64,000 nucleotides of DNA. Source: an uncultured Oxalobacteraceae bacterium (GTDB lineage Bacteria; Pseudomonadota; Gammaproteobacteria; Burkholderiales; Burkholderiaceae_D). A program made the position numbers and the translations under genes. The first letter of the stretch is position 1. The number at the start of each line of letters is the position of its first letter. The notes below the pieces were generated by a model that was not told where the DNA came from, did no database searches, and saw only the letters and a list, made by a program, of their open reading frames with translations. The DNA is taken from assembly GCA_966250375.1 (NCBI GenBank), contig CBINHE010000002.1, positions 7,961 to 71,960 of the forward strand, in the 5' to 3' direction. Shown here piece after piece: positions 9,400 through 53,038 of this stretch.

Positions 9400-10059
<660 letters not shown>

Positions 10060-32276: not shown

Positions 32277-32305
32277 TTGCCAGATTTTTTGTCGGCGCAT
32301 ATACT
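32277..32305 (+). promoter_or_regulatory. Candidate sigma70 promoter of the cobalamin operon
   Basis: TTGCCA - 17 nt - TATACT, about 40 nt upstream of the riboswitch core. Confidence 0.45.
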
Positions 32306-32344: not shown

Positions 32345-32540
32345 TTTATGGAATGAAATGGGAAGTCGGTGAGTTTTCTGAATAAGCGAACAAAACCGAC
32401 GCTGCCCCCGCAACGGTAATCGAGTAAAAAGGTTTGCAGTATGCCACTGTGCAATTCAATGCATGGGAAGGCGCAGACCCAGGGAAGCCCCGCAAGGGAA
32501 TCCCGCTCGTAAGCCCGGAGACCAGCCTGAAGCCATCGTA
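32345..32540 (+). promoter_or_regulatory. Cobalamin (AdoCbl) riboswitch
   Basis: GGGAAgtcGGTG...GCTGCCCCCGCAACGGTAA...GCCACTG...GGGAAGGC and B12 box AGCCCGGAGACCAGCCT (32512-32528). Located 5' of cbtB. Confidence 0.85.
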
Positions 32541-32717
32541 GAGTTTGTATCGCGGAGGGCGATTCAGACGGATTGCTATGCTACGCACCCGTCTTTTACT
32601 TCCTTCTTCCATGCAGGCTTGTTCACGCGTTTTGCGCGGTGATCGGCAATGGAGACGTCATCTCATTCCTGTTGTCATCGTGCCTTGAGTACTCTCTTCT
32701 TTCAGGAGGAATATCAC

Positions 32718-32915
32718 ATGTCGTCAATACCTGGTTTGCTCGATAACGTTGATTCACAGTCCCATTCGGCCACGTGGAAAGACAAAATACTGCCGGTAAT
32801 GCTTGCTACAAGCCTTGGGCTGGTGCTGCTTTATGGCGCGGCTTTCGCCGAGACGGCGGCGTTGCATAATGCCGCACATGATGGCCGTCATTCTGCCGGT
32901 TTTCCGTGCCACTGA
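32718..32915 (+). CDS. cbtB: Cobalt transporter subunit CbtB
   Basis: 65 aa, one TM segment, C-terminal HNAAHDGRHSAGFPCH signature. AGGAGGA ribosome-binding site before ATG 32718. Confidence 0.85.
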   Translation: MSSIPGLLDNVDSQSHSATWKDKILPVMLATSLGLVLLYGAAFAETAALHNAAHDGRHSAGFPCH

Positions 32916-32920
32916 CCCGC

Positions 32921-33646
32921 ATGGCAGGGATGTTTAATCTGGCGACATTCAGGCGGATTGTGTCCGCAGCGGCATTGGCGGGTATGTTGGCGGGCTTGTT
33001 GTTGACCGTTGTTCAGCAACTTCAGGTGAGCCAGATCATACTCAAGGCTGAAGTGTATGAGAACGCAGCGGCTGCCTCGCAACCTGCCCATGTCCATGCT
33101 TCTGTCGAGCAGGAGCATCACGAACATGAGCATCACGAGCATGAGGTCTGGCAACCTGCCAACGGTGTAGAGCGGACTTTGTTCACGGCCTTGGCGAATA
33201 TCAGTCTGGCCGTTGGCTTCGGTTTGCTGCTGGGAGCCGCCATCTGTCTGCGTGGTGAAGTCAGCGGATGGCGTGCCGGGCTGTTGTGGGGCGTGGCAGG
33301 GTACACGGTTTTTTTTGTGGCCCCTTCCTTGGGTTTATCCCCGGAAGTTCCTGGCACCGAAGCGGCTCCACTGGCTGACCGACAACTATGGTGGCTCATC
33401 ACTGTGGGCATGACGGCAAGTGGACTATCACTGCTGATTTTTGCTCGAACCTGGCAGGTCAAAATACTGGGAGCAATCTTGCTCGGCGTTCCACACCTGA
33501 TCGGTGCGCCGCAGCTGCAAGTTCACACTAACGCACCGCCTGTCGAATTGGCCCGCGCTTTCATCTATGCCACGGCTATTGCCAATGCGGTGTTCTGGCT
33601 CGCGCTTGGCAGTTTGATGGGATTCTTTTACAAGAAATTCGCCTAG
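32921..33646 (+). CDS. cbtA: Cobalt transporter subunit CbtA
   Basis: Polytopic protein with His-rich loop EQEHHEHEHHEHE. Follows cbtB. The start is uncertain (GTG 32906, ATG 32921 or ATG 32930). Stop TAG 33644-33646 lies inside the repeat terminus. Confidence 0.85.
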   Translation: MAGMFNLATFRRIVSAAALAGMLAGLLLTVVQQLQVSQIILKAEVYENAAAASQPAHVHASVEQEHHEHEHHEHEVWQPANGVERTLFTALANISLAVGFGLLLGAAICLRGEVSGWRAGLLWGVAGYTVFFVAPSLGLSPEVPGTEAAPLADRQLWWLITVGMTASGLSLLIFARTWQVKILGAILLGVPHLIGAPQLQVHTNAPPVELARAFIYATAIANAVFWLALGSLMGFFYKKFA

Positions 33647-33881
33647 TGGTCAGTCAGGTTGAAACGGCGGGAAAGAAATCGATGGATTTTTTCGTCTGGC
33701 AAGGGTGTAGCAGGGGTTTCGCGCAGCATGCTGCGCGCCTGCGGAACAGTATCGGCTTGCAAGCCGATACGCGCCCTGCAAGGGCGAGGAGGCGCATAGC
33801 GAGCTATGCAACGACGAGCAACGCAGCCAGGCGGAAAAAGACGCGATTTATTCCCGTCGTTTCAGCCTGACTGACCACTAG
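33643..33881. mobile_element. MITE-like hairpin repeat, copy B1 (239 bp)
   Basis: 31-nt terminal inverted repeats (33643-33673 / 33851-33881, 2 mismatches). About 174-nt core that is about 88% identical (hand alignment) to the reverse complement of 55236-55411. Confidence 0.7.
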
Positions 33882-33980
33882 TCATCGTACTTGGCAGGGA
33901 GGGGCGTGGGGGCGTTACACGGGCAGTTTACGTGGCTCCATTCGCTTAAGTTGATCGCTCCGGCGTGAATAAAAAATATT

Positions 33981-34319
33981 ATGAGAACTCACACCAGACA
34001 CGTATTCATGTGCGTCGGCCCGCGCTGCACCGAAGATGGCATAAAGGCGCAAGCCATGTTCGAATTGATGGGAGAGAAGATCGATGCCCGTCCAGAGCTG
34101 CGGATCAAACGCACCAGAACCCATTGCATGGTCGCATGCCGGAATCAAGGGCCGATTCTCGTGGTGTATCCCGAAGGCGTATGGTATCGCTGCGATAACG
34201 AAACAGCATTGGAGCGGATCGTCGTCGAACATCTGGTCGGTGGGCGTGAAGTGGGCGAATTGATTTTCCATCGTCTGGGTGAAGGCGACATCTGCGCAGT
34301 GGAAAACGGCGATGCGTGA
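33981..34319 (+). CDS. Thioredoxin-like [2Fe-2S] ferredoxin-domain protein
   Basis: Cys pattern CVGPRC...C..C(R)NQGP, then VVYPEGVWY. Stop overlaps the cobN start (ATGCGTGA). No obvious SD, so the start is uncertain. Confidence 0.7.
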
Positions 34320-37300
34320 AATGAACGCGGCGGGTGCGCGCATCGCGCTGTTGACGCATGCCCCGAATGACCTGACGGTGCTGCACAGCGCGCTGGCCCA
34401 ACTGCCGCAAGAATTCCCGCCGGTGACCGGCGTCAACCTGCAGGCACTTGAAAGTGAAGTGCAGATGGCGGCGCTGCTGGCACATGAACTCGCTGCGGCC
34501 CGGATCATCATCTTGCGCGTATTGGGACGCCTCGGCAGCGTGCCGGGTTTTGCCGAGTTAATAGGCCAAGCCCGGAAGCAGGGACGGCATTTGATCGTCA
34601 TCAGCGGTACCGGAGAACCCGATCCGGAATTGGTGGCGGTGTCCACCGTTTCCTCCGGCGTGCTGCAGCAGGCTCTGACCTATTTTCAGGCCGGCGGCAG
34701 CATCAATCTGGCACAACTGTTGCGCTATTTGTCCGACCATCTTTTGCTGACCGGCTTCGGCTTCGAGCCGGCGCTGGCTTTGCCCGAGCATGGACTGTAT
34801 CACCCCGACTTGCCCCAAGGCGCCGGCATCGACGACTGGCTGGATCAGCGCGTGCCGCAGCAGCCGAGTGTCGGTATCGTTTTCTACCGGGCTCACTGGA
34901 TGAGCGGCAATACGCGCTTCGTTGATGCGCTGGTTGATGCACTGGAAAAGCGCGGCATGAATGTGCTGCCGGTATTCACCTCGTCACTCCGTGCCGGAGG
35001 CGATGGCGGCGCGCAATTGCCGACGGCGCTGCGCCATTTCAGCGAGGAAGTCAACGGCAAAACGCGCGCGCTTATCGATGTGCTTATCAACACGACTTCG
35101 TTTGCCATGGGTGAAATCACGCCTGGCGGGCCGACCCCGGCAGGCTGGTCAGTCGGTGTGCTGGAGCGACTCAATGTGCCGGTGCTGCAAGCCATGACCA
35201 GCGGCATGATGCTGGGGCAGTGGCAGCAATCGGCGCGCGGCATGAACCCGCTCGACGCCGCGATGAACGTGGTGTTGCCGGAGTTCGACGGGCGCATCAT
35301 CACCGTCCCTGTGTCGTTCAAGACGCGGGCCGCCGGCATGTCTAACGAGACGGTCGAATACGAGCCGCTGTCCGATCGCGTGGCGCGCGTGGCAGGTCTC
35401 GCGGCGCGTTTCGCGCGGCTGAAACGGCTGCCCAATGCGGACAAGCGCGTGGCCTTTATTTTTACCAATTCCAACAGCAAGGCATCGCAAATCGGCAATG
35501 CAGTTGGCCTCGACGCGCCGGCATCGCTGATGCGCATCCTGTGCGCGATGCGCGACGCCGGTTATCGCATCGACCAGTTGCCCGAAGACGGCACCGCGCT
35601 GATTCATGCGTTGATTGACCGCTGCGCCTACGACAATACCTGGCTTAGCGCCGAGCAGTTGACGCACGCGGTCGGACGCGTGCCGGCGGCGCAGTACGCG
35701 GCGTGGTTTGACGATTTGCCGCTGGAGATGCAGGAGAAAATGGCGGCGCAATGGGGGCCGCCGCCGGGCGTAGCCTATGTGCATGATGATCATCTGGCGC
35801 TGGCTGGCATTGAGCTGGGCAATGCCTTCGTTGCGCTGCAACCACCGCGCGGTTACGGCATGGACCCGGATGCGATCTATCACCAGCCCGATCTGCCGCC
35901 GACCCACCATTATTACGCGCTATATCGCTGGTTACGGGATGAGTGGCGCGCTGACGCCATCGTTCATGTCGGCAAGCACGGCACGCTCGAATGGCTGCCA
36001 GGCAAGGGCGTGGGCCTGTCGGGAAACTGTTTTCCGGATGCGCTGCTGGCGGATATGCCTCTGTTTTATCCCTTCATCATCAATGACCCTGGCGAGGGTG
36101 CGCAGGCCAAGCGCCGCGCCCATGCCGTCGTCGTCGATCACCTGACGCCGCCGATGACCACCGCCGACACCTATGGCGCGCTGGCCCAGTTGACTCAACT
36201 GGTGGACGAGTACTATCAGGTGGAAGTGCTCGATCCGGCCAAGCTGCCGTTGTTGCAGCAGCAGATATGGGAGCTGGTGAAGGAGACCAATCTGGATGCG
36301 GATCTGCAGGCCAGACTGCTGCATCATGACCATGATCACCATGATCATCACGACCACCACGATCATGACCACGATGATCACGCCCATTTCCATGGCCACG
36401 ATCACAAACACGATCACGATCATCAGCATGGCCACGACCACGACGATCATGACCATGACGACGAAATTCCCGCCGCACTGGCAAACATGGACGGAGCCGA
36501 TGTCGCCCATCTGATCGAGGATCTCGACGGTTATTTGTGCGAGTTAGGCGCGGCGCAGATCCGCGACGGCTTGCACATTCTTGGCCAAGCGCCCGAAAAC
36601 GAGCAACTGGTTGACATGCTGGTGTCCCTTACGCGTCTGCCGAATCAGGATATCCCTGGTTTGCAGGCGGAAGTAGCCCGGCTGTTCGGGTTGAAAATCG
36701 ACATGCTGCTGGAGCACAAGGGCCGTCGTTTGAATGTTGTCAGTGCTCTGGCTCGCCTGGCTGAACGACCGGTCGTGACACGAGCCGATGCGCTGGAGGC
36801 GATCGATGTGTTGTGCCGCAAACTGTTCGTCGAACTGCATGCGCGCGGTCATCTTGCATCATGTATAGACGAGGTGCTGGATCTGGTTTTTGGCGGACTT
36901 GACGCCGATGGTAGTGCAGTCAACCAGCCGCTTTTACAACCTGCGCTTCGTGCGCGCAGTAGCGTATTTTCGCAAGTGAAAAAGCCGCGTGTACAAGAGA
37001 GTGCCGTCCGCACGATGCCGGTCAAGGCCGTCCATCAAGATGCGTCGGCAGATACCGAAATTTGCTATGACGGTTTGCGTCGCATACTCGGTTTTGCCTG
37101 CCGCGAGCTGGCGCCGAATCTGGCGCGCGCTTCGGACGAGATTGACAACCTGTTGAGCGGGCTGGCCGGCGGTTATGTGCCGGCGGGACCGAGCGGCTCG
37201 CCGACGCGCGGCATGGCGCATATCCTGCCGACCGGGCGCAATTTCTACTCGGTCGATCCGCGCAGCGTGCCGTCGCAGTCGGCCTGGCGCGTCGGATCGC

Positions 37301-38514
37301 AATTGTCGCATGAAGTGCTGGCGCGCCATGTGCGCGAAACCGACGACTATCCGGAAAGCGTCGCCATCAGTATCTGGGGCACCAGCGCGATGCGCACGCA
37401 TGGCGATGACGTGGCGCAGATTCTGGCGCTGCTCGGTGTGCGTCCGGTGTGGCGGCCGGAAAATAGACAACTGACCGGCGTCGAAGTGATTCCGCTTGCG
37501 GAACTGAAACGCCCGCGCATCGATGTAACAACGCGCATCAGCGGCTTTTTCCGCGATGCATTCCCGCAATTGATCGATTTGATCGATGACGCGGTCAATG
37601 CCGTCATCAAGTTGGACGAGCCGCTGTCGCAAAATTTCGTGCGCAAGCATTATCTCGCCGAATTGGGCGAATGGATCGGGAAGGGATTGCCGCAAGATGA
37701 GGCATCCCGTCGCGCCGGTTATCGCATCTTCGGCGCCAAGCCTGGCAGTTACGGTGCCGGCATTCTGCCGTTGATCCAGGAAAAGAATTGGCAAGCCGAT
37801 GCCGACTTCGCCGAGGCCTATGTCAACTGGGGCGGCTATGCGTATGCGCGCAATACGCAAGGCGTGGACGAACGCGATGCGTTCCGGGTACGCCTGTCGG
37901 GCGTACAGGTGGCGCTGCACAACCAGGACAATCGCGAGCACGACATTTTCGACAGCGATGATTACTTGCAATTCCACGGCGGCATGATCGCCACCATCCG
38001 TGCCCTGACCGGGCAGCAGCCCCGTCACTATTTCGGCGACAGCCATGATCCGGCGCGGGCTCAGGTGCGCGATCTCAAGGAAGAGACCTTACGGGTATTC
38101 CGCTCGCGCGTCGTCAATCCCAAGTGGCTGACAAGTATTCAGCGTCACGGTTACAAGGGTGGACTGGAATTGACGGCGACGGTTGATTACCTGTTCGGTT
38201 ACGACGCCACCGCCCAGGTGATGGACGACTGGATGTACGAGCAAGTGGCAAGTACCTATGCGTTCGATCCCGAGATGCAGCGCTTTCTGCAGGAAGCCAA
38301 TCCGTGGGCGCAGAACGCGATCGCCGAACGCTTGCTGGAAGCGGCCAGCCGCGGCATGTGGGCCGAGCCGCAGCCGCAGACGCTGGAGGCGCTGCGTGCG
38401 CTGTATCTACGCAGTGAAACCTTGCTAGAGGCGCGCGGCGAGACACCGCGCAATGCATCTCTGCCCAGTTGGGGACAGAGTACCGCTTCGCTTAACTCTT
38501 TCCCGCAAGATTGA
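34312..38514 (+). CDS. cobN: Cobaltochelatase large subunit CobN (with His/Asp-rich insert)
   Basis: About 1400 aa. CobN/Mg-chelatase H family blocks throughout (e.g. [51 protein letters not shown]). Confidence 0.95.
36322..36465 (+). repeat. CAY/GAY codon repeat encoding a 48-aa His/Asp tract within cobN
   Basis: [48 protein letters not shown] (24 His and 17 Asp by hand count). Confidence 0.9.
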
Positions 38515-38519
38515 CGACT

Positions 38520-40424
38520 ATGAATTTTCCATTTTCCGCCATCGTCGGACAGCCGCAGTTGAAATCCGCGCTGCTGCTTTGCGCGGTCGATCCGACGCTG
38601 GGTGGCGTGCTGATTCGGGGCGACAAGGGAACGGCCAAAAGCACGGCGGCGCGGGCGTTGACAGATATCCTGCCGCTGATTGAACGTGTCGCCGGCTGTG
38701 CGTTCAACTGTTCGCCCGGCACGCCCTGTGGACATTGCGAGATCTGTAGCGACGCGAGTGCGACGGCGCAGGTTGCTACGGTGCCTTTTGTCACGCTGCC
38801 GCTCGGTGCGACCGAGGATCGAGTGCTCGGCACCCTCGATCTGGAGCGCGCGCTGCAGGGCGCCAAGCGTGCTTTTCAACCCGGCTTGCTGGCGGCAGCG
38901 CACCGCGGCATTCTCTACATCGATGAAGTTAACCTGTTGCCCGATCACCTGGTGGATGTCCTGCTGGACGTGGCAGCGATGGGTATTAACTCCGTGCAGC
39001 GCGAAGGCTTGTCGATCACGCATCCGGCACGCTTCACGCTGATCGGCACGATGAATCTGGAAGAGGGCGACTTGCGCCCGCAACTGCTCGACCGCTTCGG
39101 CCTGATGGTCGAAGTGACGGCGCCGCGTGAAAAAGCCTTGCGCGCCGAGGTGGTGCGCCGCCGTATCGCATTCGAGGCAAATCCTGCCGGTTACGCCACC
39201 GGCTGGGATCAGCAGCAGGATGCGCTACGTCACCAGCTTGCCACCGCGCAGCGCTTGTTGCCGGAGGTGGTGCTGGATGATGCGTTGCTCGACCTGATCA
39301 GTCATCTGTGCTGCGAATTCGACGTCGCCAGCCTGCGTGCCGACATCGTGATGCACAAGGCATCGCGCGCATTGGCGGCACTTGAGGGGCGGATGCGGGT
39401 GACGCCTGAAGACGTGCGTTGCGCGGCGGAATTGGTGCTGCCGCATCGCCGCCGCCGCAAACCGTTCGAACAGCCGGGCCTGGATCGCGAGCGTCTCGAC
39501 GAATTGATGCAGCAAGCCGCTCAGCCACCGGAATCGAACGATGAATCAAATGCTGCCTCACAGGACGAAGGCGCAGAGAATGCGGAGGGCGACGCTGGAC
39601 AGGAGAATCAGCAACAGGTGTTCGCTGCCGCATCCACCGGCACCGCGCGCCGGCTCGCGGTCGATGCCGCCTCGGCTCGCAGCACTGTGGGCCGGCGCAG
39701 CGAGGCACTGGATGCGTCGCGTGGCCGCGTGGTGCGCGCAGTCCAGCATGACAATCCGAGCAGCCTTGCGGTCGGTGCGACACTGCGTAGCGCAGCGCTG
39801 CGCGATCCGAAGGAATTTCAAGTAACTAAAAGCGATCTGCACCAGCAGATTCGCATCGGCAAGAGCGCCAACCTCATCCTGTTCGTGGTGGATGCCTCCG
39901 GCTCCATGGCGGCGCAGCGGCGCATGGAAGCGGTCAAGGGGGCGGTACTGGCGCTGCTGACCGATGCCTACCAGCGGCGCGACGAAGTGGCTGTCATCTC
40001 CTTTCGCGGCGAAGCGGCGGCGCTGCTGCTGGCGCCCACTCGCAGCGTCGATCGCGCCGAGCAGGGATTGCGCGAGCTGCCCACCGGTGGCCGCACGCCA
40101 TTGCCGCACGCGCTGCAGTTGGCGTTGCAAACCCTGGAGCAGGCGGGTGCAAGCAGCGCACCGCCGCTGCTGGTCTTGCTGAGCGACGGCAGGGCGAACG
40201 TTGCATTAAGCGATGGCGGCGACCCATGGCGCGAGACGCTGGCGCTGGCGGAGCTGCTGGCCGGACGCGGTGTGCCGGCATTGGTGCTCGATACCGAAAG
40301 CGGTTACCTGCGTCTGGGCCGGGCTGGACAACTGGCGCAAGCGCTGGGTGCCGAATGCCTGACGCTGGAGCAGTTATCGGTAGAGAACTTGGCGCTCACG
40401 ATACGTGGTCGCATGAAATTTTAA
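38520..40424 (+). CDS. Fused ChlI-like AAA+ / ChlD-like vWA chelatase subunit (ChlID type)
   Basis: N-terminus FPFSAIVGQ, GDKGTAKST Walker A, LYIDEVNLL Walker B. Acidic linker (ESNDESNAASQDEGAENAEGD). C-terminal vWA domain (LILFVVDASGSM). TTG 38511 or ATG 38520 start, overlapping or abutting the cobN stop. Confidence 0.88.
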   Translation: MNFPFSAIVGQPQLKSALLLCAVDPTLGGVLIRGDKGTAKSTAARALTDILPLIERVAGCAFNCSPGTPCGHCEICSDASATAQVATVPFVTLPLGATEDRVLGTLDLERALQGAKRAFQPGLLAAAHRGILYIDEVNLLPDHLVDVLLDVAAMGINSVQREGLSITHPARFTLIGTMNLEEGDLRPQLLDRFGLMVEVTAPREKALRAEVVRRRIAFEANPAGYATGWDQQQDALRHQLATAQRLLPEVVLDDALLDLISHLCCEFDVASLRADIVMHKASRALAALEGRMRVTPEDVRCAAELVLPHRRRRKPFEQPGLDRERLDELMQQAAQPPESNDESNAASQDEGAENAEGDAGQENQQQVFAAASTGTARRLAVDAASARSTVGRRSEALDASRGRVVRAVQHDNPSSLAVGATLRSAALRDPKEFQVTKSDLHQQIRIGKSANLILFVVDASGSMAAQRRMEAVKGAVLALLTDAYQRRDEVAVISFRGEAAALLLAPTRSVDRAEQGLRELPTGGRTPLPHALQLALQTLEQAGASSAPPLLVLLSDGRANVALSDGGDPWRETLALAELLAGRGVPALVLDTESGYLRLGRAGQLAQALGAECLTLEQLSVENLALTIRGRMKF

Positions 40425-40433
40425 GGAGTAGTG

Positions 40434-41138
40434 ATGATCATCTGTATCGGTGCAGGGCCGGGCGACGTTGGTTACTTGACGCAGCGCGGGGCGGAATTGA
40501 TCCGCGATGCCGACGTGGTAGCCGGATTCGATGCGGTAGTGAATGTCGTGCGCAGCTTGATCGCGCCGGCAGCAGAAGTGGTGACGATGGGTTATCGCGA
40601 TCAGGTCGAAAAACTGGCGCAGGTGGCGTTGGCGCACCATGCCGGCAAGCGTTGCGTCGTGGTATTCATGGGTGATATTCACTTCAGCGGCTTCCAGTAC
40701 CTGGAGCGGGTCGAGCGCGCGTGCGGTCACGCGGTAGAAACGCTGCCGGGAATATCCTCCGCGCAAATTCTCGCGTCGCGTGCCAAAGTATGTTTCGACG
40801 AAACCACGTTCATCACTTTTCACCGTCGTGGCGATCTCGGTCCTTTCAAACGTCATCTGGTGCATGTGCTGCAAGACGAGCGCAATGCGATCGTGATCCC
40901 GTGCCCGTGGGACGCGGCACGCTCCTTCATGCCACGCCACATCGCCGCTTACCTGCTGGAGAATGGCGTGTCGCCTGAGCATCCAACCGAAGTGTGGGAG
41001 AACCTGACGCGCGGCGAAGCAGAATGGCATGGCACGCTTGCCGAATGCGTCGATCGCGATTTTACAGACATGAGCATCATGCTGATCCGTACGCGCAAGC
41101 CAATGGACAGCCAGATCGAGCCGCCGGAGGGCAAATGA
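40434..41138 (+). CDS. cbiE: Tetrapyrrole methylase, CbiE-like (precorrin-6Y / cobalt-precorrin-7 C5-methyltransferase)
   Basis: [11 protein letters not shown]...ADVVAG...PGISSAQ methylase fold, about 235 aa. No fused CbiT/CobL C-terminal half. The subfamily assignment is tentative. Confidence 0.6.
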
Positions 41139-43868: not shown

Positions 43869-44620
43869 GCATGAGATCAAAACCCGGCACCGCAGTTGGC
43901 ACATTCTGGGGCATCGGCGTTGGCCCGGGACCAGCCGGCTATCTGCCGCTCGCGGCGCTCGAGGCGCTACGGCAAGCCGACGTCGTACTCGTGCCGCGGG
44001 CGCGCAGCGCGGAAACGTCGGTCGCACTGCAATGCCTGACCGGTATCGACATCCGGTCGCAACGACTACGGGAAATCGAATTCAACATGGATCCGGACCG
44101 GTCGGTATTGCGCGAGCATTATGCGCAGTTGGCCGACACGATTGCAGTCGATCTGTGCGCCGGACGCAATGTGGCTTACCTGACGATCGGCGATACGCTG
44201 ACGTACTCCACCTACGGCTATGTGCTGGCCGCGTTGCGCGAGCGGCTGCCCGAATTGCCACACCGTACTTTTCCCGGCATCACCAGCTACGCAGCCGCCG
44301 CATCGGCCCTGAGCTGGCCGCTGGGCGAGGGCAAGGAACGAATACTGATCTTGCCGTGTCCTGACGATCCTCTGGCGCTGCGGCGCGATATCGAAACGCA
44401 TGACATCGTGGTGTTGATGAAGGTCGGCGCACGCCTGGCTTGGGTACTCGACCTGTTGCGCGACATGGGCATCGCCGAATATTGCGCATTTGCGCGCCGC
44501 ATCGGCTTGCCAGGTGAAATGCTGGCGACCGATGTCGAGAATTTATGTGCGACCGAGGCAATGGGGTATCTTGCGACGCTGCTGATCCGTAAAACCCCGA
44601 GAGAAAAAAGACACACATGA
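43865..44620 (+). CDS. cobI: Precorrin-2 / cobalt-factor II C20-methyltransferase
   Basis: GTFWGIGVGPGPAGYL...ADVV, TIGDTLTYSTY, PGITS. GTG 43865 or ATG 43871 start. Confidence 0.88.
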   Translation: MSMRSKPGTAVGTFWGIGVGPGPAGYLPLAALEALRQADVVLVPRARSAETSVALQCLTGIDIRSQRLREIEFNMDPDRSVLREHYAQLADTIAVDLCAGRNVAYLTIGDTLTYSTYGYVLAALRERLPELPHRTFPGITSYAAAASALSWPLGEGKERILILPCPDDPLALRRDIETHDIVVLMKVGARLAWVLDLLRDMGIAEYCAFARRIGLPGEMLATDVENLCATEAMGYLATLLIRKTPREKRHT

Positions 44621-45417
44621 AGGTATATTTCATCGGTGCCGGTCCCGGCGCTTCCGACCTGATCACGCTGCGTGGCGCCAACATACTGGGCCGCGTCAAC
44701 ATGGTGCTGTACGCCGGTTCGTTGGTACCGACCGACATGCTGCAGCATTGTCGCCCAGATGCCGAGCTGATCGATACCGCCAAGCTCGACCTCGAACAGC
44801 AGGAGGCGTGTTACCGCCGTGCCCAGACAGCCGGCTGCGACGTGGCGCGCCTGCACTCGGGCGATCCGGCAATCTACGGCGCGACCGCCGAGCAAATGCG
44901 GCGGCTCGATGCGCTGGGCATCGAATACGAGATAGTGCCGGGGGTGTCGTCGTTCAGCGCCGCCGCCGCCGCAGTCAAGGCCGAATTGACCAAGCCGGAA
45001 GTGTCGCAGACCATCATCCTGACCCGCGTTTCCGGTCGTGCATCGGCGGTGCCGGAAGCAGAAGCGATCGCCAAATTGGCCGAGCATCGCGCGACCATGT
45101 GCATTTTCCTGTCGGGGCCGCATCTGAAAAAAATCGTGACCGACCTGCGTCTGCATTATCCGGAGGACACGCCGGTGACACTGGTTTATCGGGCTAGCTG
45201 GCCCGAGCAACGCATCTATCAGGGAAGCCTTGGCACGGTGTTGAAAGAAACCAAGCGCGGCGCCTGGAACCTGACCACCATGCTGCTGGTCGGCGCAGCG
45301 CTGGGGGATGGCGCGCAGGTGGAGTCAAGCTTGTACTCGAAGGATTTCAAGCATCTGTTTCGGGCCGTGAAAAAGACCAAGCCAAAGGTCGAAAAGATCG
45401 AAAAGGCAATAGCGTGA
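44617..45417 (+). CDS. cobM: Precorrin-4 / cobalt-precorrin-4 C11-methyltransferase
   Basis: VYFIGAGPGASDLIT.RG, LHSGDPAIYGA, VPGVSS. ATGA overlap. Confidence 0.92.
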   Translation: MKVYFIGAGPGASDLITLRGANILGRVNMVLYAGSLVPTDMLQHCRPDAELIDTAKLDLEQQEACYRRAQTAGCDVARLHSGDPAIYGATAEQMRRLDALGIEYEIVPGVSSFSAAAAAVKAELTKPEVSQTIILTRVSGRASAVPEAEAIAKLAEHRATMCIFLSGPHLKKIVTDLRLHYPEDTPVTLVYRASWPEQRIYQGSLGTVLKETKRGAWNLTTMLLVGAALGDGAQVESSLYSKDFKHLFRAVKKTKPKVEKIEKAIA

Positions 45418-46190
45418 GCGGGGACGTAAATGCATCACTCGGCATCTGGCTGGTGCGCGCAGAAAGCGAAGCACTCGCCGCTGCTCTGCAAGCGCAGCTC
45501 GGCGGCACGATGTACCGCCCCTGGTTGAATCCGTCCGTGACACAGAAGCAGCAGTTCGCTGCCGTGTATCGACAGCATGCACAGTGGGTGATGGTGGCAG
45601 CCAGTGGCATCGCGGTGCGCTTTCTCGATGGCTTGGCGCAGGATAAGCACAGCGATCCGGCGCTGGTGGTGCTGGACGAAGCGGGCTGTTATGCGGTATC
45701 GCTGCTGGCCGGGCACGAGGGCGGCGCCAACCGTCTGGCTTATCGCGTGGCTAACGCAGTCGGCGCGGTGCCGGTGGTCACCACGGCGACCGAGGCCTTG
45801 AAGTCGCTCGTGGTTGGCATTGGTTGCCGCAAGGGCGTGTCGGCCGAGCGAATCGACGCGGCGGTGCAGCAGGCGCTTGATGGGCTTGCTGGGCGCCGTT
45901 TAAACGAAGTGCGCGAGGTTGCGACGATCGACCTGAAGGCGGACGAGCCGGGATTGATCGAATTCTGCGCGCGGCATGACTTGCCGCTGCGGATCTTTGC
46001 GCGTGACACGGTAGCGGCACGGGCATGGGTGACGCAGCCCTCGGATTGGGTACGTCAAAACGTGGGGCTCGATGGCGTATGCGAACCATGCGCTTTGATC
46101 GCCTGCACGCGCGGCAAACTGGCGGTGCCGAAAATGGCTTTGGACGGCGTGGCCGTGGCAGTAGTAGAAGATAAATGGATGGAAGCATGA
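45414..46190 (+). CDS. cbiG: CbiG-family protein (cobalt-precorrin-5A hydrolase / CobE-like C-terminal domain)
   Basis: N-terminal CbiG region plus C-terminal VVGIGCRKG....I...V........L....V..ATID.K..E. Confidence 0.8.
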   Translation: MSGDVNASLGIWLVRAESEALAAALQAQLGGTMYRPWLNPSVTQKQQFAAVYRQHAQWVMVAASGIAVRFLDGLAQDKHSDPALVVLDEAGCYAVSLLAGHEGGANRLAYRVANAVGAVPVVTTATEALKSLVVGIGCRKGVSAERIDAAVQQALDGLAGRRLNEVREVATIDLKADEPGLIEFCARHDLPLRIFARDTVAARAWVTQPSDWVRQNVGLDGVCEPCALIACTRGKLAVPKMALDGVAVAVVEDKWMEA

Positions 46191-47746
46191 CTGGGGTACT
46201 GAATTTGGTGTCGGTCGGACCGGGCTTTAACGACTTGATCATTCCGCGTGCCGAAGCGGCGTTGCGCGACAGCGACGTGATCGTGGCCTACGAGTTGTAT
46301 TTGCGCTGGATCGAACCGTGGCTGGAAGGCAAGGAAATTCACACGCCGCCGCTGACGCAAGAGCGCGAGCGCGCTTTGCTGGCGATCGACAAAGCCCGCA
46401 GCGGCGCCAAAGTCGCCTTGATTTCCAGCGGCGACATCGGTATTTACGCAATGGCGGCACTGGCGTTCGAGGAGATGCAGGAAGACGATACCTACGAGGT
46501 GAATGTCGTGCCGGGGATTACTTCGGCCAATGCCTGCGCGTCGTTGCTGGGCTCGCCCTTATCGCATGACTTCGCCACCCTCAGCCTGTCCGATTTGCTA
46601 TGTCCTTGGGAATGGATCGAAAACCGCGCACGGCACATCGCGCAAGCCGACTTGGCTTGCGTGTTGTACAACGTGCAGAGCGCCGGCCGGCAGCAGGGTG
46701 TCTATCGCATCCTGAATCTCATGCTGGAATCCAAGGCGCCGCATACCTTGTGCGGCGTGGTGAAAAATGCTTATCGGCCCGGTCAGCAAGTCAGCATCCA
46801 TCGCCTGGAAGAATTGCCGGCATTGCAGTTCGATATGCTCACCACCATCGTGATCGGCAACCGGTTTACCCGGCGCAAGCGCGGCCGCATTTTTACGCCG
46901 CGCGGCTACAACGACTGGGCTTCGCCGGATGTTGCGCCAGCCATGCAGCAGGAACAGCATGCATTACCCGATCATGCAGTCTGGGTTTTTTCCGGTACCA
47001 GCGACGGCAATGCACTGGCGACGCAGTTGGCAGCAGCGCAGGACTGCCCGGTGATCGTATCCGCAGCTACTGAATACGGTGGCGAGGTGGCCATCAAGGA
47101 CTGTCCGGGCGTGTCGGTCTGGGCCGGTCGTCAAGGCATCGAAGCACGCCGGCAGGCCCTGACGCGCAGCCATGCGCGCGCGCTGGTCGATGCGACGCAT
47201 CCCTATGCCACGATCATTTCCGAACAGTTGATTGGTTTATCGCGTGAACTCGGCATCCCGTATTTGCGCTATGAGCGGCCCAGTGCGCTTGCGCCGGCGT
47301 ACGGTGATTTGTGCGAATCGATGGCGCAGGCAGCCGAACGCGCCATCGCGCTCGGCCGACGTATTTTTCTGGCGACCGGCTCCAAGGATCTGGCGACGTT
47401 TCTGCAAGCGCCCGGTGCAAATGCGCGAGAGTGGTTTGTGCGTGTCACGGCAGAGCCGGAATTCATTCAGCGCGCGATCGATCTGGGCGTGCCGCGCAGC
47501 CACCTGTGCGCGATGCAAGGACCCTTCTCGGAGGCGTTCAATACGGCATTGTGGCGCGATTGGCAAATCGATTGTGTGGTGACCAAGGATTCCGGCGACG
47601 CCGGCGGCTATCGCGCCAAAGCGGCAGCGGCGCAGGCGCTGGATATTCCATTGCTCGTGATTCAACGGCCGAATCTGGCGTATCCGCTGTTCACCTCGAC
47701 GTTCGATGCTGTGTTACAGCAACTGGCGACGTGGAAAATAGCATGA
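46187..47746 (+). CDS. Fusion of precorrin-3B C17-methyltransferase (CobJ/CbiH) with precorrin-6A reductase (CobK/CbiJ)
   Basis: N-terminus LVSVGPG...SSGDIGIYAMA...VPGITS. C-terminus VWVFSGTSDG...VDATHPYA...LRYERP...KDSG. ATGA overlap with cbiG. Confidence 0.88.
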   Translation: MTGVLNLVSVGPGFNDLIIPRAEAALRDSDVIVAYELYLRWIEPWLEGKEIHTPPLTQERERALLAIDKARSGAKVALISSGDIGIYAMAALAFEEMQEDDTYEVNVVPGITSANACASLLGSPLSHDFATLSLSDLLCPWEWIENRARHIAQADLACVLYNVQSAGRQQGVYRILNLMLESKAPHTLCGVVKNAYRPGQQVSIHRLEELPALQFDMLTTIVIGNRFTRRKRGRIFTPRGYNDWASPDVAPAMQQEQHALPDHAVWVFSGTSDGNALATQLAAAQDCPVIVSAATEYGGEVAIKDCPGVSVWAGRQGIEARRQALTRSHARALVDATHPYATIISEQLIGLSRELGIPYLRYERPSALAPAYGDLCESMAQAAERAIALGRRIFLATGSKDLATFLQAPGANAREWFVRVTAEPEFIQRAIDLGVPRSHLCAMQGPFSEAFNTALWRDWQIDCVVTKDSGDAGGYRAKAAAAQALDIPLLVIQRPNLAYPLFTSTFDAVLQQLATWKIA

Positions 47747-48867
47747 ATCAGCTGATTCCCGTCACCATCGTCACCGGTTTTTTGGGCTCGGGCAAAACCA
47801 CCTTGCTGCGCAGCTTGATTCAACGCAGGCAAACCCGCCGCCTTGCGCTGTTGATCAATGAGTTCGGCGAAGTCTCGATCGACGGGGAGTTGATCCGCGA
47901 CAGTGCCGATAATAATAACGATGGTGATCAGATCCGGATTCACGATTTTTCACACGGCCTGATCGCCTATGGCGACGATGAACTTTTTATTCCTGTCATG
48001 CGCGCGATCGCTGAACGCCGCGCCAATGTCGATCATGTGCTGATCGAAACCTCCGGCCTGGCGCTGCCGACGGCGGTAATGGAAATGCTGCAGAGCCCCG
48101 AACTGGCCGCAGATTTTATTCTGGATGCGACACTGGCCGTGGTGGATACGCCCTTGTTATTGTCCGATCAGTTCGAGCGCGGTAATGAGGCCGATGGCCC
48201 GCAAGCGGCGGTCGCCGGCATGTTTGAACAGCAGCTCGAATACGCCGATGTCGTGGTGTTGAATAAAATCGATCTGCTCGATGAAAATGCGCTGCTACTG
48301 GCCGAGACCCGCGTGCGGCAACGCGCGCCGAATGTGCGCTTCCTTGAACTGGCCTATCACGCACAGCTTGATATCCGCCTTGCTCTGGGACTGCGCTTGC
48401 ATCAGCCAACATTGGTTGCGCACAACCACCGTTACACGCCGCTGGCGTCGATGCCGGGCGCCGATGCTTCTCTACTCGGCAATCAAGATCGCTTGAACGG
48501 TCACGCTCATTCCGGCTTGAGTGCCCACAGCCATGGCCTCGCGACGCACAAGCATTTTCATGAGCAGGACCCGGGCTGGCTGTCGTTTGTCCTGCGCAGC
48601 CAGGCGCCGCAGCAAACAGAAACATTGAAATTCGCGTTGATCGAAGCGGCCAAGGCGGAACCGATCTTGCGCAGTAAAGGTTTTATTCGTACCAACGATT
48701 CGGAACGTGCGGTGCTGGTGCAGGGCGTGCGCTCACGGGTGGCGATCAGTGTCGATGCAGAAAAATCGGCCCCACAAAAATCGGAACTGGTGTTCATCGG
48801 TTACCATCCGAGCCGCACCAAAGTGGCGACACTGTTATCCGACTTGACCGGAACTACCTGGAGATAA
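47743..48867 (+). CDS. cobW: CobW (COG0523 metallochaperone GTPase)
   Basis: PVTIVTGFLGSGKTTLL, ETSGLA, LNKIDL. His-rich stretch NGHAHSGLSAHSHGLATHKHFHE. ATGA overlap; the ORF-track start 47311 is rejected. Confidence 0.9.
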   Translation: MNQLIPVTIVTGFLGSGKTTLLRSLIQRRQTRRLALLINEFGEVSIDGELIRDSADNNNDGDQIRIHDFSHGLIAYGDDELFIPVMRAIAERRANVDHVLIETSGLALPTAVMEMLQSPELAADFILDATLAVVDTPLLLSDQFERGNEADGPQAAVAGMFEQQLEYADVVVLNKIDLLDENALLLAETRVRQRAPNVRFLELAYHAQLDIRLALGLRLHQPTLVAHNHRYTPLASMPGADASLLGNQDRLNGHAHSGLSAHSHGLATHKHFHEQDPGWLSFVLRSQAPQQTETLKFALIEAAKAEPILRSKGFIRTNDSERAVLVQGVRSRVAISVDAEKSAPQKSELVFIGYHPSRTKVATLLSDLTGTTWR

Positions 48868-48872
48868 TTTTA

Positions 48873-49475
48873 ATGAAAACCGATCCTGAATCACATAAAC
48901 GGATGACCCAGCGTCATAAAGAAGGCTTCGAAAAAAAGAAGGCCGCTGCGCAAAAAGAAAAAGGCTTGCTGATTGTGTACACCGGCACCGGCAAAGGCAA
49001 ATCCACCGCCGCATTCGGCATGGGCATGCGCATACTCGGCCATCAGATGAAACTGGGTGTGGTGCAATTCATCAAGGGCGCATTACACAGCGCCGAACGC
49101 CAGGTGCTCGGCAGTAACCCCAATTGCGATTTTCATGTCGTCGGCGCCGGTTATACCTGGGATACGCAGGATCGCGCAGCCGACATGCAAACGGCCGCCA
49201 ACGGTTGGGCCGAAGCGGTCAGGATGATCACCGATCCTTCCTACGATATGGTGATTCTCGATGAACTCAATATCGTGCTTAAGTATCAATACCTCGACTT
49301 GGCCGAAGTCCTTGAGGTATTCGGCAAGCGGCGCGAGATGCTGCACATCGTTGTCACCGGCCGTCATGCACCGGAGGGATTGATCGAACTGGCCGATCTC
49401 GTCAGCGATATTCGCCCGGTAAAACACCCGTATCAGGAGCAGGGCATCAAGGCGCAAAAAGGGGTGGAGTTTTAA
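48873..49475 (+). CDS. cobO: Cob(I)yrinic acid a,c-diamide adenosyltransferase
   Basis: GLLIVYTGTGKGKSTAAFG, VQFIKG, LDELN, TGR motifs. Confidence 0.93.
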   Translation: MKTDPESHKRMTQRHKEGFEKKKAAAQKEKGLLIVYTGTGKGKSTAAFGMGMRILGHQMKLGVVQFIKGALHSAERQVLGSNPNCDFHVVGAGYTWDTQDRAADMQTAANGWAEAVRMITDPSYDMVILDELNIVLKYQYLDLAEVLEVFGKRREMLHIVVTGRHAPEGLIELADLVSDIRPVKHPYQEQGIKAQKGVEF

Positions 49476-49476
49476 G

Positions 49477-50769
49477 GTGCAAACGCAACGCTGCCCCGCG
49501 CTCTTCATCAGCGCACCCGGCTCCAATCACGGCAAGACGACCGTCACTGCCGCGCTCGCCCGCTTCCATGCCAACCAAGGTCGTAAAGTCAGGGTATTCA
49601 AGACCGGGCCGGATTTTCTTGATCCGATGATACTTGAGCGCGCTTGCGGCCAGCCGGTGTACCAACTGGATCTTTGGCTGGCAGGTGAAGCAGAATGTCG
49701 GCGCCTGGTCTACGAGGCGGCGCAAACGGCGGATCTGATCCTGATCGAGGGCGTGATGGGTTTGTTCGACGGTAGCCCTTGCAGCGCTGATCTCGCCGAA
49801 AAATCAGGGGTGCCGGTGCTGGCGGTAATCGACGCATCCGGAGTAGCGCAAACGTTGGGCGCAATCGCGTATGGACTTGCCCATTATCGTTCAGGACTGC
49901 CGTTCGCCGGCGCGCTGGCCAATGCGGTCGCCAGCAGCCGTCATGAAGAAATGATCGTGCAGGGCATGCCCCCGGGAATGCGCTACTTCGGCGGGCTGCC
50001 GCGCAATACGCAATTTACTTTGCCGGAGCGGCATCTGGGTCTGGTGCAGGCCGAAGAGGTTATCGATCTCGAATCCCGCCTGTCGGCAGCCGCAGCGTCG
50101 ATTGCCTTGACAAGCTTGGCAGAATTGCCGGCAGCAGTGGAGTTCACCTGTACCGCCGTTGAACCGTTGCAGCAACTGCTGGCTGGTATGCGCATCGGCA
50201 TTGCGCGTGATCCGGCATTTTCATTTATTTATCCGGCCAATCTGGATTTGTTGGAGGCGCTGGGCGCCGAGCTTGTTTTCTTTTCGCCGCTCGCCGACCA
50301 GGCGCTACCAGAGGTGGACAGCCTTTACCTGCCGGGCGGATATCCGGAACTGCATCTTCAGCAATTGCAGGATAACGCAGCGCTGAAAGCCGCGCTGCAC
50401 AGCCACTTCCAGCGAGGAAAACCGATTTACGCAGAGTGCGGCGGGATGCTGTATTTGCTCGAATCGCTCACCGACAAAGCTGGAAAGCGCGGCGCAATGA
50501 CGGGGATTTTGCCAGGACACGCCCTCATGCAGGCGCGTTTGCAAGGCTTGGGTTATCAATCGGCGCCGATGCCGGGCGGCGTGCTGCGTAGCCATACTTT
50601 TCACCACTCGGTGATCGACACGCCGCTGACCCCGATCGCATCCGGTGAGCGTTTATACAATACCTCGCAAGGAGAGAGGATTTTTCAATTGGAGCGACTG
50701 ACAGCAAGTTACCTGCACTGTTACTTTCCTTCCAATCCAAGCGCGGCTGCCCGGCTGTTTCTGCCATGA
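49477..50769 (+). CDS. cobB: Cobyrinic / hydrogenobyrinic acid a,c-diamide synthase
   Basis: GSNHGKTTVT, FKTGPDFLDP, amidotransferase half with YAECGGMLYL. GTG start 1 nt after the cobO stop. Confidence 0.9.
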   Translation: MQTQRCPALFISAPGSNHGKTTVTAALARFHANQGRKVRVFKTGPDFLDPMILERACGQPVYQLDLWLAGEAECRRLVYEAAQTADLILIEGVMGLFDGSPCSADLAEKSGVPVLAVIDASGVAQTLGAIAYGLAHYRSGLPFAGALANAVASSRHEEMIVQGMPPGMRYFGGLPRNTQFTLPERHLGLVQAEEVIDLESRLSAAAASIALTSLAELPAAVEFTCTAVEPLQQLLAGMRIGIARDPAFSFIYPANLDLLEALGAELVFFSPLADQALPEVDSLYLPGGYPELHLQQLQDNAALKAALHSHFQRGKPIYAECGGMLYLLESLTDKAGKRGAMTGILPGHALMQARLQGLGYQSAPMPGGVLRSHTFHHSVIDTPLTPIASGERLYNTSQGERIFQLERLTASYLHCYFPSNPSAAARLFLP

Positions 50770-51431
50770 ACCGATTCAGCAACGAAGAGGTCGCCGCAGT
50801 ATACAAAGTGATCGCCGAACGGCGCGATATCCGCCACTTTCTGCCGGACCCACTCTCGCCGGAACTGCTGGCCCGCCTGTTGAACGCCGCGCATCTGGCT
50901 CCCAGCGTCGGCTTCATGCAGCCGTGGCGGTTTATCCGGATTTCGGACCCCAGCCTGCGCACCACCATTCACCAGATGGTAGAACAAGAGCGCATCAACA
51001 CCGCCCATGCCTTGCATGAGCGCGAGGACGAATTCATGCGGCTGAAAGTGGAGGGTGTGCGCGAGTGCGGCGAATTGCTGGTGGTGGCGTTGATGGATCG
51101 GCGCGAGGAGCATATTTTCGGACGTCGCACGCTGCCGGAAATGGACCTCGCCTCGGTTGCTTGCGCGATCCAAAACATCTGGCTGGCAGCTCGCGCCGAA
51201 GGTGTCGGCATGGGCTGGGTTTCGCTGTTCGATCCGGAGCAACTGCGTCTTGTACTGGGCATGCCCGCCGGCGCCAAGCCGATTGCGATCCTGTGTCTGG
51301 GTCATGTGGCAGCCTTTTATCCGAAGCCGATGCTCGAACTTGAAGGCTGGGCGGTGCGGCAGAAGCTGCAAGACATGGTGTACGAGAATGCCTGGCGCGA
51401 TCATGCCGAGACCAATAGTGAACCAGAATAA
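50766..51431 (+). CDS. bluB: 5,6-dimethylbenzimidazole synthase (BluB, nitroreductase fold)
   Basis: FSNEEVAAVYKVIAERRDIRHFLPDPL, APSVGFMQPWRF motifs. ATGA overlap. Confidence 0.88.
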   Translation: MNRFSNEEVAAVYKVIAERRDIRHFLPDPLSPELLARLLNAAHLAPSVGFMQPWRFIRISDPSLRTTIHQMVEQERINTAHALHEREDEFMRLKVEGVRECGELLVVALMDRREEHIFGRRTLPEMDLASVACAIQNIWLAARAEGVGMGWVSLFDPEQLRLVLGMPAGAKPIAILCLGHVAAFYPKPMLELEGWAVRQKLQDMVYENAWRDHAETNSEPE

Positions 51432-51471
51432 ACCTGAATCATCACCCCAATTTTTATTTAAGGAGAATCAT

Positions 51472-51996
51472 ATGCGTACCAAATTTATCCGCTGGTGTAT
51501 CACCCTGATGCCGATCGCTTTCTGCAGTATGGCCTATGCGCATCCTGGCCATACGAATGGCACCATGGCCGGCATTCTCCATCCGCTTCTCGGCCTCGAT
51601 CATTTGTTCGCCATGCTTGCGGTCGGCGTATGGGCAGCTCAGTTAGGAGGACGTGCAAAGTGGCTGCTGCCAACCAGTTTCGTTACGCTCATGGCGCTGG
51701 CCGGCAGCATGGGCATGGCCGGTATCGCGTTGCCCATGGTGGAAAGCGGTATCGCCACTTCGGTGCTGCTGCTGGGCTTGCTGATTGCTTTTTCGGTGAA
51801 AGTGACGCCCGCTCTTGGCGCCGGCATCGTCGGTTTATTTGCCGTTTTTCACGGCTATGCGCATGGTGTAGAAATGCCCCTGCTGGGCTCGCCATGGCAG
51901 TATGGTTTCGGTTTTGTTGTGTCCACCATCGTATTGCATGGTCTGGGCCTGTTGCTTGGCGGGCGCTTGCAAACTCGAGCGTGCGCCATCAATTGA
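51472..51996 (+). CDS. hupE: HupE/UreJ-family Ni/Co transporter
   Basis: Signal peptide then AHPGH, HPLLGLDHLFAML, FHGYAHG motifs. AAGGAGA ribosome-binding site. The ORF-track start 51157 is rejected. Confidence 0.85.
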   Translation: MRTKFIRWCITLMPIAFCSMAYAHPGHTNGTMAGILHPLLGLDHLFAMLAVGVWAAQLGGRAKWLLPTSFVTLMALAGSMGMAGIALPMVESGIATSVLLLGLLIAFSVKVTPALGAGIVGLFAVFHGYAHGVEMPLLGSPWQYGFGFVVSTIVLHGLGLLLGGRLQTRACAIN

Positions 51997-52963: not shown

Positions 52964-53038
52964 TGGTCCCGCCGACAGGAATCGAACCTGTATCTAGCGC
53001 TTAGGAGGCACTTGTTCTATCCATTGAACTACGGCGAG
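52964..53038 (-). tRNA. tRNA-Arg (anticodon CCU)
   Basis: Hand-folded 75-nt cloverleaf: CTCGCCG-TA-GTTC-AATGGATA-GAAC-A-AGTGC-CTCCTAA-GCGCT-AGAT-ACAGG-TTCGATT-CCTGT-CGGCGGG-A-CCA. CCA is encoded. Confidence 0.9.

Follow-up and report, generated by a model that had tools for sequence, protein, structure and literature searches.

A riboswitch-controlled vitamin B12 operon of the Ralstonia solanacearum type, with two cobalt chelatases and no CbiT

The window analysed here, a 64,000-nucleotide stretch of an uncultured Oxalobacteraceae bacterium (assembly GCA_966250375.1, contig CBINHE010000002.1), contains a complete riboswitch-controlled vitamin B12 operon, the design of which is common to many betaproteobacteria including Ralstonia solanacearum. 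It opens with a cobalamin riboswitch aptamer (RF00174; 32308-32544, + strand) that scores 113.8 bits against an Rfam gathering score of 31.5 and spans model positions 1-189 of 189. Immediately 5' of the riboswitch lies a sigma-70-like candidate promoter, TTGCCA-17-TATACT (32277-32305, + strand), proposed from its consensus match only (10 of 12 positions). Seventeen genes follow, all on the + strand and each confirmed by Pfam and NCBIfam profiles. Eleven of the junctions overlap, by 4-41 nt with the starts of the longest open reading frames (ORFs) and by 4-14 nt with plausible later starts, and this overlap suggests that the genes are co-transcribed. The Rfam, Pfam and NCBIfam searches thus bear out the layout given in a first-pass annotation of this DNA, namely a riboswitch in front of 17 same-strand genes with 11 overlapping junctions. 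The genes flanking the operon are unrelated housekeeping genes.

The first two genes, cbtB (32649-32915; PF09489, 67.6 bits; TIGR02459, 60.6 bits) and cbtA (32906-33646; PF09490, 167.8 bits; TIGR02458, 242.7 bits), encode candidate cobalt transporter subunits. They are followed by the sole large gap of the operon, 334 nt without assigned strand (33647-33980), which carries a repeat element and is missing from relatives; there cbtA abuts fdx, its stop lying 8 nt 5' of fdx in relative L027. The gap holds no + strand terminator-like site, and a 74-residue ORF inside the repeat element (33646-33870) matched no family in profile searches and is not counted as a gene. Next comes fdx (33981-34319), encoding a thioredoxin-like [2Fe-2S] ferredoxin that resembles CbiW (NF041612, a weak match at 38.5 bits). 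The large subunit of a class I ATP-dependent cobaltochelatase is encoded by cobN (34279-38514; TIGR02257, 1241 bits against 822), which probably starts with the ATG at 34312, within the overlap with the stop of fdx, and its fused AAA+/von Willebrand A (VWA) partner by chlID (38511-40424; TIGR02442, 795.7 bits against 779).

The ring-building genes begin with a cbiE of the haloarchaeal/Ralstonia type (40431-41138; NF004457, 350.4 bits against a cut-off of 302) and a gene for a CbiX(long)-CobH fusion (41135-42733; PF01903 twice, PF02570 212.8 bits). Three methyltransferase genes follow: cbiD for C1 (42711-43868; TIGR00312, 389 bits), cobI/cbiL for C20 (43865-44620; TIGR01467, 212.5 bits) and cobM/cbiF for C11 (44617-45417; TIGR01465, 331.9 bits). 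A short form of cbiG, with the N- and C-domains and without the middle domain (45414-46190; PF11760, PF01890; NF005440, 405 bits against 395), precedes a fusion of cobJ/cbiH (C17 methyltransferase, ring contraction; TIGR01466, 297 bits) with cobK/cbiJ (reductase; TIGR00715, 184 bits) at 46175-47746. The remaining genes are cobW for a COG0523 GTPase cobalt chaperone (47743-48867; PF02492, PF07683; TIGR02475, 187 bits, under the cut-off of 332), cobO for the corrinoid adenosyltransferase (48873-49475; NF004637, 266.8 bits), cobB/cbiA for the a,c-diamide synthase (49477-50769; NF002204, 428.9 bits), bluB for the O2-dependent dimethylbenzimidazole synthase (50766-51431; TIGR02476, 258.5 bits) and a gene of the hupE/ureJ family for a candidate cobalt/nickel transporter (51472-51996; PF04955, 176.4 bits). 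A tRNA gene lies about 1 kb 3' of the operon end (52967-53038, - strand, 62.3 bits).

The genome assembly to which the window belongs comprises 4.45 Mb and is 98.76% complete. Outside the operon it holds three more B12 riboswitches, one leading btuB-btuCD-cobU-cobD-aminotransferase-btuF, another btuB-cobQ and the third a TonB-receptor cluster with a second CobN-like gene; cobT adjoins one of the three. With cobU, cobD, cobQ and cobT located under or near these riboswitches, the late part of the pathway is present. The genome's only cobA lies in a sulfate-assimilation cluster (contig C59) together with a second, single-domain CbiX, and this cluster, comprising cysH, cobA, the single-domain CbiX and a sulfite reductase, is the siroheme branch.

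What the genome lacks was assessed by whole-genome profile searches. The best scores remained under the cut-offs for CobG (146 bits against 234.8), CobZ (19.7 against 372), CobF (28.5 against 195.8) and CbiT (38.9 against 78.3). The 146-bit match is no hidden CobG but a NirA-family sulfite reductase, encoded in the sulfate-assimilation cluster beside cysH, cobA and the small CbiX. There is also no CobS in the genome, the fused ChlID standing in for CobS/CobT, and no separate ChlI paralogue. A programmed frameshift that would yield a small subunit from chlID was considered and rejected, as the linker contains no X_XXY_YYZ heptamer and the ORF is continuous. The first-pass annotation had found CobG/CobZ, CobF and the C-terminal, CbiT-like half of CobL to be absent from the cluster, and these absences extend to the whole genome; its statement that both types of chelatase stand together in one operon likewise holds, with CobN-ChlID and CbiX each confirmed by profiles.

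We refer to the design as type W, defined by the gene order fdx-cobN-chlID-cbiE-cbiX::cobH-cbiD-cobI-cobM-cbiG-cobJ::cobK-cobW together with the absence of CobG and CbiT, all of which the window displays. Relatives were collected with the CbiX-CobH protein as query, one genome per species, and the best 80 of 177 were kept. The type-W core order occurs in about 70 species of Burkholderiales and Methylococcales and is preserved in the relatives' loci wherever the contig reaches. Among them are Janthinobacterium, Massilia, Duganella, Herbaspirillum, Glaciimonas, Gallionellaceae and Nitrosomonadaceae, as well as Methylophilaceae, Methylobacter and other Methylococcales, Ralstonia, Cupriavidus and Pseudogulbenkiania. 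The operon is also found on 129 megaplasmids of the Ralstonia solanacearum complex and, with ring genes of 48-70% identity, on plasmid pDATS01 of Deinococcus aquaticus (locus L134), an occurrence suggesting that the operon has spread horizontally as a whole. Nine relatives, the closest one (90% identity) among them, carry cobA between chlID and cbiE (for instance L022 8545-9303, L027 8526-9251 and L054 8431-9225); the corresponding place in the window (40424-40431) is a 6-nt spacer, and the organism relies on the cobA of contig C59. The first-pass annotation had described the gene set with the proviso that it might prove to be the norm for its clade, and this is largely the case. The type is widespread and has been validated genetically, and the present operon is an ordinary example of it, a real finding but an unremarkable one for the clade.

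Some of the relatives' loci are disturbed. Three Methylococcales operons contain insertions of 5-7.5 kb (L090 11864-19394, L048 14464-19297 and L072 15068-20115), one of which includes a 1547-residue ORF. On a 1-Mb contig labelled Acidobacteriota (L026), cbiE aligns in two frames (9284-9989), suggesting a frameshift.

Type W can also be set against the other designs of its order. In an even sample of 151 genomes, CobH was found in seven only. One of these, G036, is classically ‘late’, with CobG (330 bits) beside CobH, and with CobN, a CbiT domain, CbiD and a CbiG N-domain. Four others (G012, G051, G130 and G149) are classically ‘early’, with CbiX adjoining or fused to CobH, CbiT at 127-137 bits and no CobN. 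The window genome and G117 represent type W as a third design, in which a CbiX-CobH fusion and CobN occur without CobG and CbiT.

The experimental anchor for type W comes from R. solanacearum GMI1000, in which a cobN::Tn5 (RSp0626) metE double mutant grew on minimal medium only with added cobalamin (Plener et al. 2012, PMC3353975). The operon is thus genetically required for B12, and with it for the B12-dependent MetH, in this species; the chemistry discussed below is a proposal. Given that Ralstonia carries the same operon, the B12 requirement of the mutant indicates that type W makes functional B12 in aerobic culture without CobG, CobF and CbiT. The correspondence is close: Ralstonia (e.g. 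AP024100.1, 1355175-1373247) has fdx-cobN-chlID-cbiE-cbiX/cobH-cbiD-cobI-cobM-cbiG-cobJK-cobW-cobO-cobB-bluB at 59-83% protein identity, and CbiT was found in neither of two Ralstonia genomes searched. The differences lie at the edges and in the gaps. A NiCoT-type transporter replaces cbtBA in Ralstonia and hupE is missing; an unannotated gap of 660 nt separates chlID from cbiE, whereas in the window the repeat element lies between cbtA and fdx.

The fusion protein consists of a two-lobed class II chelatase (residues 1-260) and a precorrin-8 methylmutase (residues ~319-520). The chelatase part aligns across both lobes with Bacillus subtilis SirB (5zt7; 116 bits), its best match among solved structures. 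CbiX(long), a cobaltochelatase, is reported to have an MXCXXC motif (Leech 2003, as relayed in PMC7242693), and the fusion carries such a motif, M-N-C-S-L-C, at 41921-41938. Among the 80 relatives retained, the fusion is kept in 80/80 and MNCSLC in 80/80, and His 17, His 83 and the general form MNCxLC are invariant in 79-80. With two lobes and the MXCXXC motif, the domain has the features of CbiX(long) and is predicted to bind a 4Fe-4S cluster; with its catalytic histidines it can also be classed as a putative class II sirohydrochlorin cobaltochelatase. Since a single-domain CbiX already lies beside cobA and the sulfite reductase, the fused CbiX is not needed for siroheme, and in the four CobN-less genomes of the same order, CbiX adjoining or fused to CobH is the only chelatase found.

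The ferredoxin can be traced in a similar way. Homologues of 44-49% identity, one of which reaches PF01257, occur in three of the CobN-less, early-type clusters, where they lie 3' of cbiH (directly so in at least two). The ferredoxin is therefore not tied to CobN. In the G051 and G149 clusters, the CbiH (L121 6734-8092; L124 15704-17077) bears a C-terminal domain of ChuX/HutX-like haem-binding fold, and the ferredoxin gene is directly 3' of it.

The least ordinary feature of the operon is the absence of CbiT. Either CbiT or the CbiT domain of CobL belongs to both textbook routes. Across type W, CbiT exceeded its cut-off in none of 50 genomes and in none of five further ones (0/56 in all), whereas it is present in all five other B12 producers of the same order; CobG, too, was under its cut-off in each of the five named type-W genomes. 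The best CbiT profile matches in the window genome are PrmC, a protein-lysine methylase and a PIMT-like protein whose gene lies between those for AcrB and TolC, so none of them is a hidden CbiT. Five CbiT domains of the same order, used as tblastn queries, gave no match in the genome, and no protein of the operon has extra domain space that could accommodate one. No paper addressing the CbiT gap of type W was found in the literature searched, and this gap is a less noticed question than that of the two chelatases.

CbiE is conspicuous as well. It represents a distinct family and is the most conserved protein of the core operon, with a mean identity of 84.9% and the top rank in 34 of 48 loci. 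Among 72,556 plasmid records, CbiE of the NF004457 type matched solely in Ralstonia, Deinococcus and haloarchaea, the window protein being 35-40% identical to its haloarchaeal plasmid matches (39% in Haloferax volcanii). Of 400 genomes sampled evenly across the phylum, only that of the window has this CbiE. The type-W design is thus common within certain genera and rare across families.

Among known systems, the Hfx. volcanii cluster on pHV3 (HVO_B0048-B0062) shares with the window a cobalt-early set together with cobN and chlID, a cbtB-cbtA-ferredoxin trio, a long CbiX, adjoining cobN, cbiC and cbiE, and a CbiE of the same equivalog (NF004457). It differs in having CbiT, in lacking a recognisable CbiD and CbiJ, in a CbiX that is not fused to CbiC and in extra genes for a DUF3209 and a PQQ-like protein, and identities are only 29-51%. 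Its curators count the presence of cobN-chlID in a cobalt-early cluster among the open issues and conjecture a salvage role (Pfeiffer and Dyall-Smith 2021, PMC8305020).

Another aerobe offers a comparison by description only. The operon of Bacillus (Priestia) megaterium, with the order cbiW-cbiH60-cbiX-cbiJ-cbiC-cbiD-cbiET-cbiL-cbiF-cbiG-cbiA, serves an O2-independent route and resembles the window in its long CbiX with MXCXXC, CbiW, CbiG and CbiD. It is unlike the window in having CbiET, and hence CbiT, in the Fe-S extension on its CbiH and in not being known to have CobN, ChlID or CobW. In its position relative to cbiH, the ferredoxin of the CobN-less clusters parallels the CbiW of B. megaterium. 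The late clusters (on Pseudosulfitobacter, Azospirillum and Azotobacter plasmids, and in G036) share cobW and cobN with the window, and some also cbtAB, bluB, cbiD or a CbiG-like domain. In contrast to the window, they have CobG beside CobH and a CobL with the CbiT domain, CobF is often present, CbiX is absent from the cluster, and their CobJ forms a separate clade (support 99/100).

Textbooks and papers of 2026 distinguish a cobalt-early route with CbiX or CbiK from a cobalt-late route with CobG and CobNST, and a 2026 preprint keeps this dichotomy strict. A large group of aerobes fits neither route, namely betaproteobacteria from soil and freshwater, methanotrophs and R. solanacearum as a plant pathogen. 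The same holds for haloarchaea; all of these keep both chelatases, and type W lacks CbiT in addition. The coexistence of the two chelatases has already been noted (PMC6461909, PMC8305020), and the question that it raises is a recognised one.

The operon contains parts of both routes. On the early side, CbiG, CbiD, CbiJ, CbiE, CbiC and CbiA are all present, with CbiG lacking its middle domain. On the late side, CobN, the AAA+/VWA partner and CobW are present, whereas CobG/CobZ, CobF and a CbiT-bearing CobL are absent; CbiD, a possible stand-in for CobF, is present. Not all of these members are informative. CbiD and a CbiG N-domain occur with CobG and CobN in G036, and one Azospirillum cluster has CobG, CobN and CbiD. 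The two proteins are therefore no markers of the early route and lend it no support, and the conflict reduces to CbiX and the CbiW-like ferredoxin on one side and CobN-ChlID-CobW on the other. Of the interpretation in the first-pass annotation, the two chelatases, the missing CobG/CobZ/CobF and the missing CbiT stand, whereas the use of CbiD and CbiG as early-route markers is contradicted by the G036 and Azospirillum clusters, and the mixture is not new.

Our favoured reading, held with moderate confidence, is that the Ralstonia-type operon runs cobalt-early with O2-independent ring contraction. With neither CobG, CobZ nor CobF in a 98.8%-complete genome, none of the known O2-dependent routes could yield a contracted ring free of metal. 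The similarities of three enzymes, those with the most route-dependent substrates, point the same way, on the basis of early and late labels taken from the annotated clusters themselves. With eight early-type CbiH from five phyla (Burkholderiales, Thermus, Leptospira, Roseburia, Parabacteroides), the CobJ domain reaches 175-197 bits, and with four CobG-linked CobJ of its own phylum, Proteobacteria, 130-139 bits; CobI scores 66-93 bits against early-type and 54-65 against late-type enzymes, and CobH 106-124 and 79-100 bits, respectively. In a maximum-likelihood tree of CobJ/CbiH, the CobG-linked CobJ form one clade (99/100 support) and the type-W proteins a separate, long-branched clade outside it. 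Comparison with solved structures was set aside as not decisive; CobJ scores highest with a Thermus enzyme and CobM with that of Rhodobacter capsulatus.

What we observe is which genes are present and absent, how well they are conserved, and that R. solanacearum genetically requires the operon; each chemical step, the order in which the chelatases act and the role of CobN we infer. In the favoured reading, CobA, encoded outside the operon, would make precorrin-2, and the CbiX(long) domain would insert Co(II) into sirohydrochlorin. CbiL, CbiH-CbiJ, CbiF, CbiG, CbiD, CbiE, CbiC and CbiA would then build cobyrinic acid a,c-diamide, with the CbiW-like [2Fe-2S] ferredoxin as the presumed electron supplier. 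The operon would also provide for cobalt import (CbtAB, HupE), adenosylation (CobO) and the lower ligand (BluB). CobN-ChlID, with CobW as its chaperone, would act as a second, energy-driven cobalt inserter that selection has retained, and our best guess is that it inserts the metal with high affinity under cobalt scarcity or restores it to corrinoids that lack it.

Several observations weigh against cobalt-early synthesis. The first concerns the retention of the second chelatase. All type-W genomes examined have CobN, ChlID and CobW, with mean identities (76%, 73% and 71%, respectively) comparable with those of the ring enzymes. In L026, cobN and chlID are not beside the ring genes, cobN lying elsewhere in the genome, yet they are retained. 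In a gammaproteobacterial metagenome-assembled genome (L098, 2876-8619), cobN and chlID are 44-58% identical against 60-87% for other operon genes; a divergent copy seems to have taken the place of the chelatase module, which is thus still retained. Such universal retention would be unexpected if CbiX alone sufficed. Second, CobM, CbiD and CobB show no early-type affinity, their scores against late-type enzymes being as high or higher, and in an approximately unbiased (AU) test, placement of type-W CobJ as sister to the late CobJ clade was not rejected (p = 0.126). Third, since CbiT is absent, the C15 methylation and decarboxylation that it normally carries out has no assigned enzyme, and the canonical early pathway cannot be fully written out. 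Fourth, no match to the precorrin-2 dehydrogenase family (PF13241/NAD_binding_7; SirC, CysG N-domain, Met8p) was found genome-wide, with 12 of 14 control genomes positive; the genome without a detected SirC-type dehydrogenase still encodes a sulfite reductase, cobA and the small CbiX. Finally, the Tn5 insertion in cobN, close to the start of an operon of 15 genes, probably has polar effects and is therefore no proof that CobN itself is needed. As a separate observation on L098, its cbiE is inverted.

A first alternative, tentative but possible, refines the favoured reading by giving CobN a specific role. CbiX would serve when cobalt is ample and buffered, and CobW-CobN-ChlID would spend GTP and ATP when cobalt is scarce or oxygen high. 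The energy would go either into metalation of sirohydrochlorin or a neighbouring early substrate, or into the rescue of by-products without cobalt or of metal-free corrinoids acquired by salvage. The two cobalt importers and CobW encoded in the operon fit such a division of labour, as does the second CobN-like gene under another B12 riboswitch together with a TonB-dependent receptor. Haloarchaea with a cobalt-early pathway keep cobN-chlID in the cluster, for which a salvage role has been proposed (PMC8305020), and, as L098 shows, the ring module has been joined to two different CobN lineages. We know of no CobN, however, that uses a substrate other than hydrogenobyrinic acid a,c-diamide. A further difficulty is posed by D. 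aquaticus, where the ring genes are intact and cobN is split into ORFs of 1007 and 585 residues by a formate/nitrite-transporter gene (L134, 18332-24104), a hint that at least one lineage may do without CobN. In this plasmid, cobN and chlID are separated by a toxin-antitoxin pair, and the gene table of the record, from which pseudogenes are left out, does not list cobN.

A second alternative, which we consider doubtful, takes late insertion as the real route. The Fe-S CbiX(long) domain and the ferredoxin would have assumed CobG's task in ring contraction, acting on a metal-free or transiently metalated intermediate, and CbiX would not be a committed chelatase. In its favour, CobN, ChlID and CobW are universally kept and conserved, the R. 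solanacearum cobN::Tn5 mutant is a B12 auxotroph, and CobM, CbiD and CobB, with the AU test, are compatible with a late origin. Gene position agrees as well, for in G036, which also has CbiD and CbiG, cobG is directly beside cobH, a place taken in type W by the CbiX domain. Yet the operon encodes no oxygenase or flavoprotein, nor does the genome encode one like CobG or CobZ, and to our knowledge no chelatase-fold protein hydroxylates C20. The chelatase histidines are invariant, and a homologous CbiX, fused or adjoining, is the sole chelatase found in the four CobN-less relatives; CobJ, CobI and CobH resemble early-type enzymes, and the mutant phenotype could be explained by polarity on the 13 downstream genes.

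We think it unlikely that type W is a third kind of corrin synthesis altogether, in which the C15 step would proceed without CbiT, CbiE possibly carrying out both the C5 and the C15 methylation, both chelatases would be required and CobN-ChlID-CobW would act on a substrate other than hydrogenobyrinic acid a,c-diamide.

It is highly improbable that the fused CbiX is a SirB-like siroheme ferrochelatase, a passenger in a late operon with an unrecognised oxygenase: although its best solved-structure match is the B. subtilis sirohydrochlorin ferrochelatase and an annotated CbiX can indeed be a ferrochelatase, as the Paracoccus ‘CbiX’ shows (Bali et al., PMC4063343), a dedicated single-domain CbiX already lies in the sulfate-assimilation cluster, and the fused one is under a B12 riboswitch, is joined to CobH throughout the 80 relatives and carries the MXCXXC of CbiX(long).

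Once the acting chelatase and the replacement for CbiT are known, pathway calls in metagenomic B12 surveys would be corrected. Such knowledge would also explain B12 synthesis by aerobes that have no oxygenase for it, and a shorter gene set for engineered production might result.

Two further observations concern CobN and its homologue. Residues ~682-729 of the operon CobN (36322-36465) form a His/Asp-rich tract at which the alignments of relatives break (e.g. L037 and L095); this is a variable low-complexity insert and not a conserved motif. The second CobN-like gene of the genome lies on contig C6 (54890-62500; L106, 891-8498) behind a riboswitch of 118.5 bits, in a cluster that encodes a TonB-dependent receptor, a MotA/ExbB-like protein, a DUF2149 protein and the CobN-like protein itself, which has 1322 residues and is 32-36% identical to the operon CobN. 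The cluster has no ChlID of its own and, judged by its genes, looks like an uncharacterised B12-regulated cluster for uptake or chelation.

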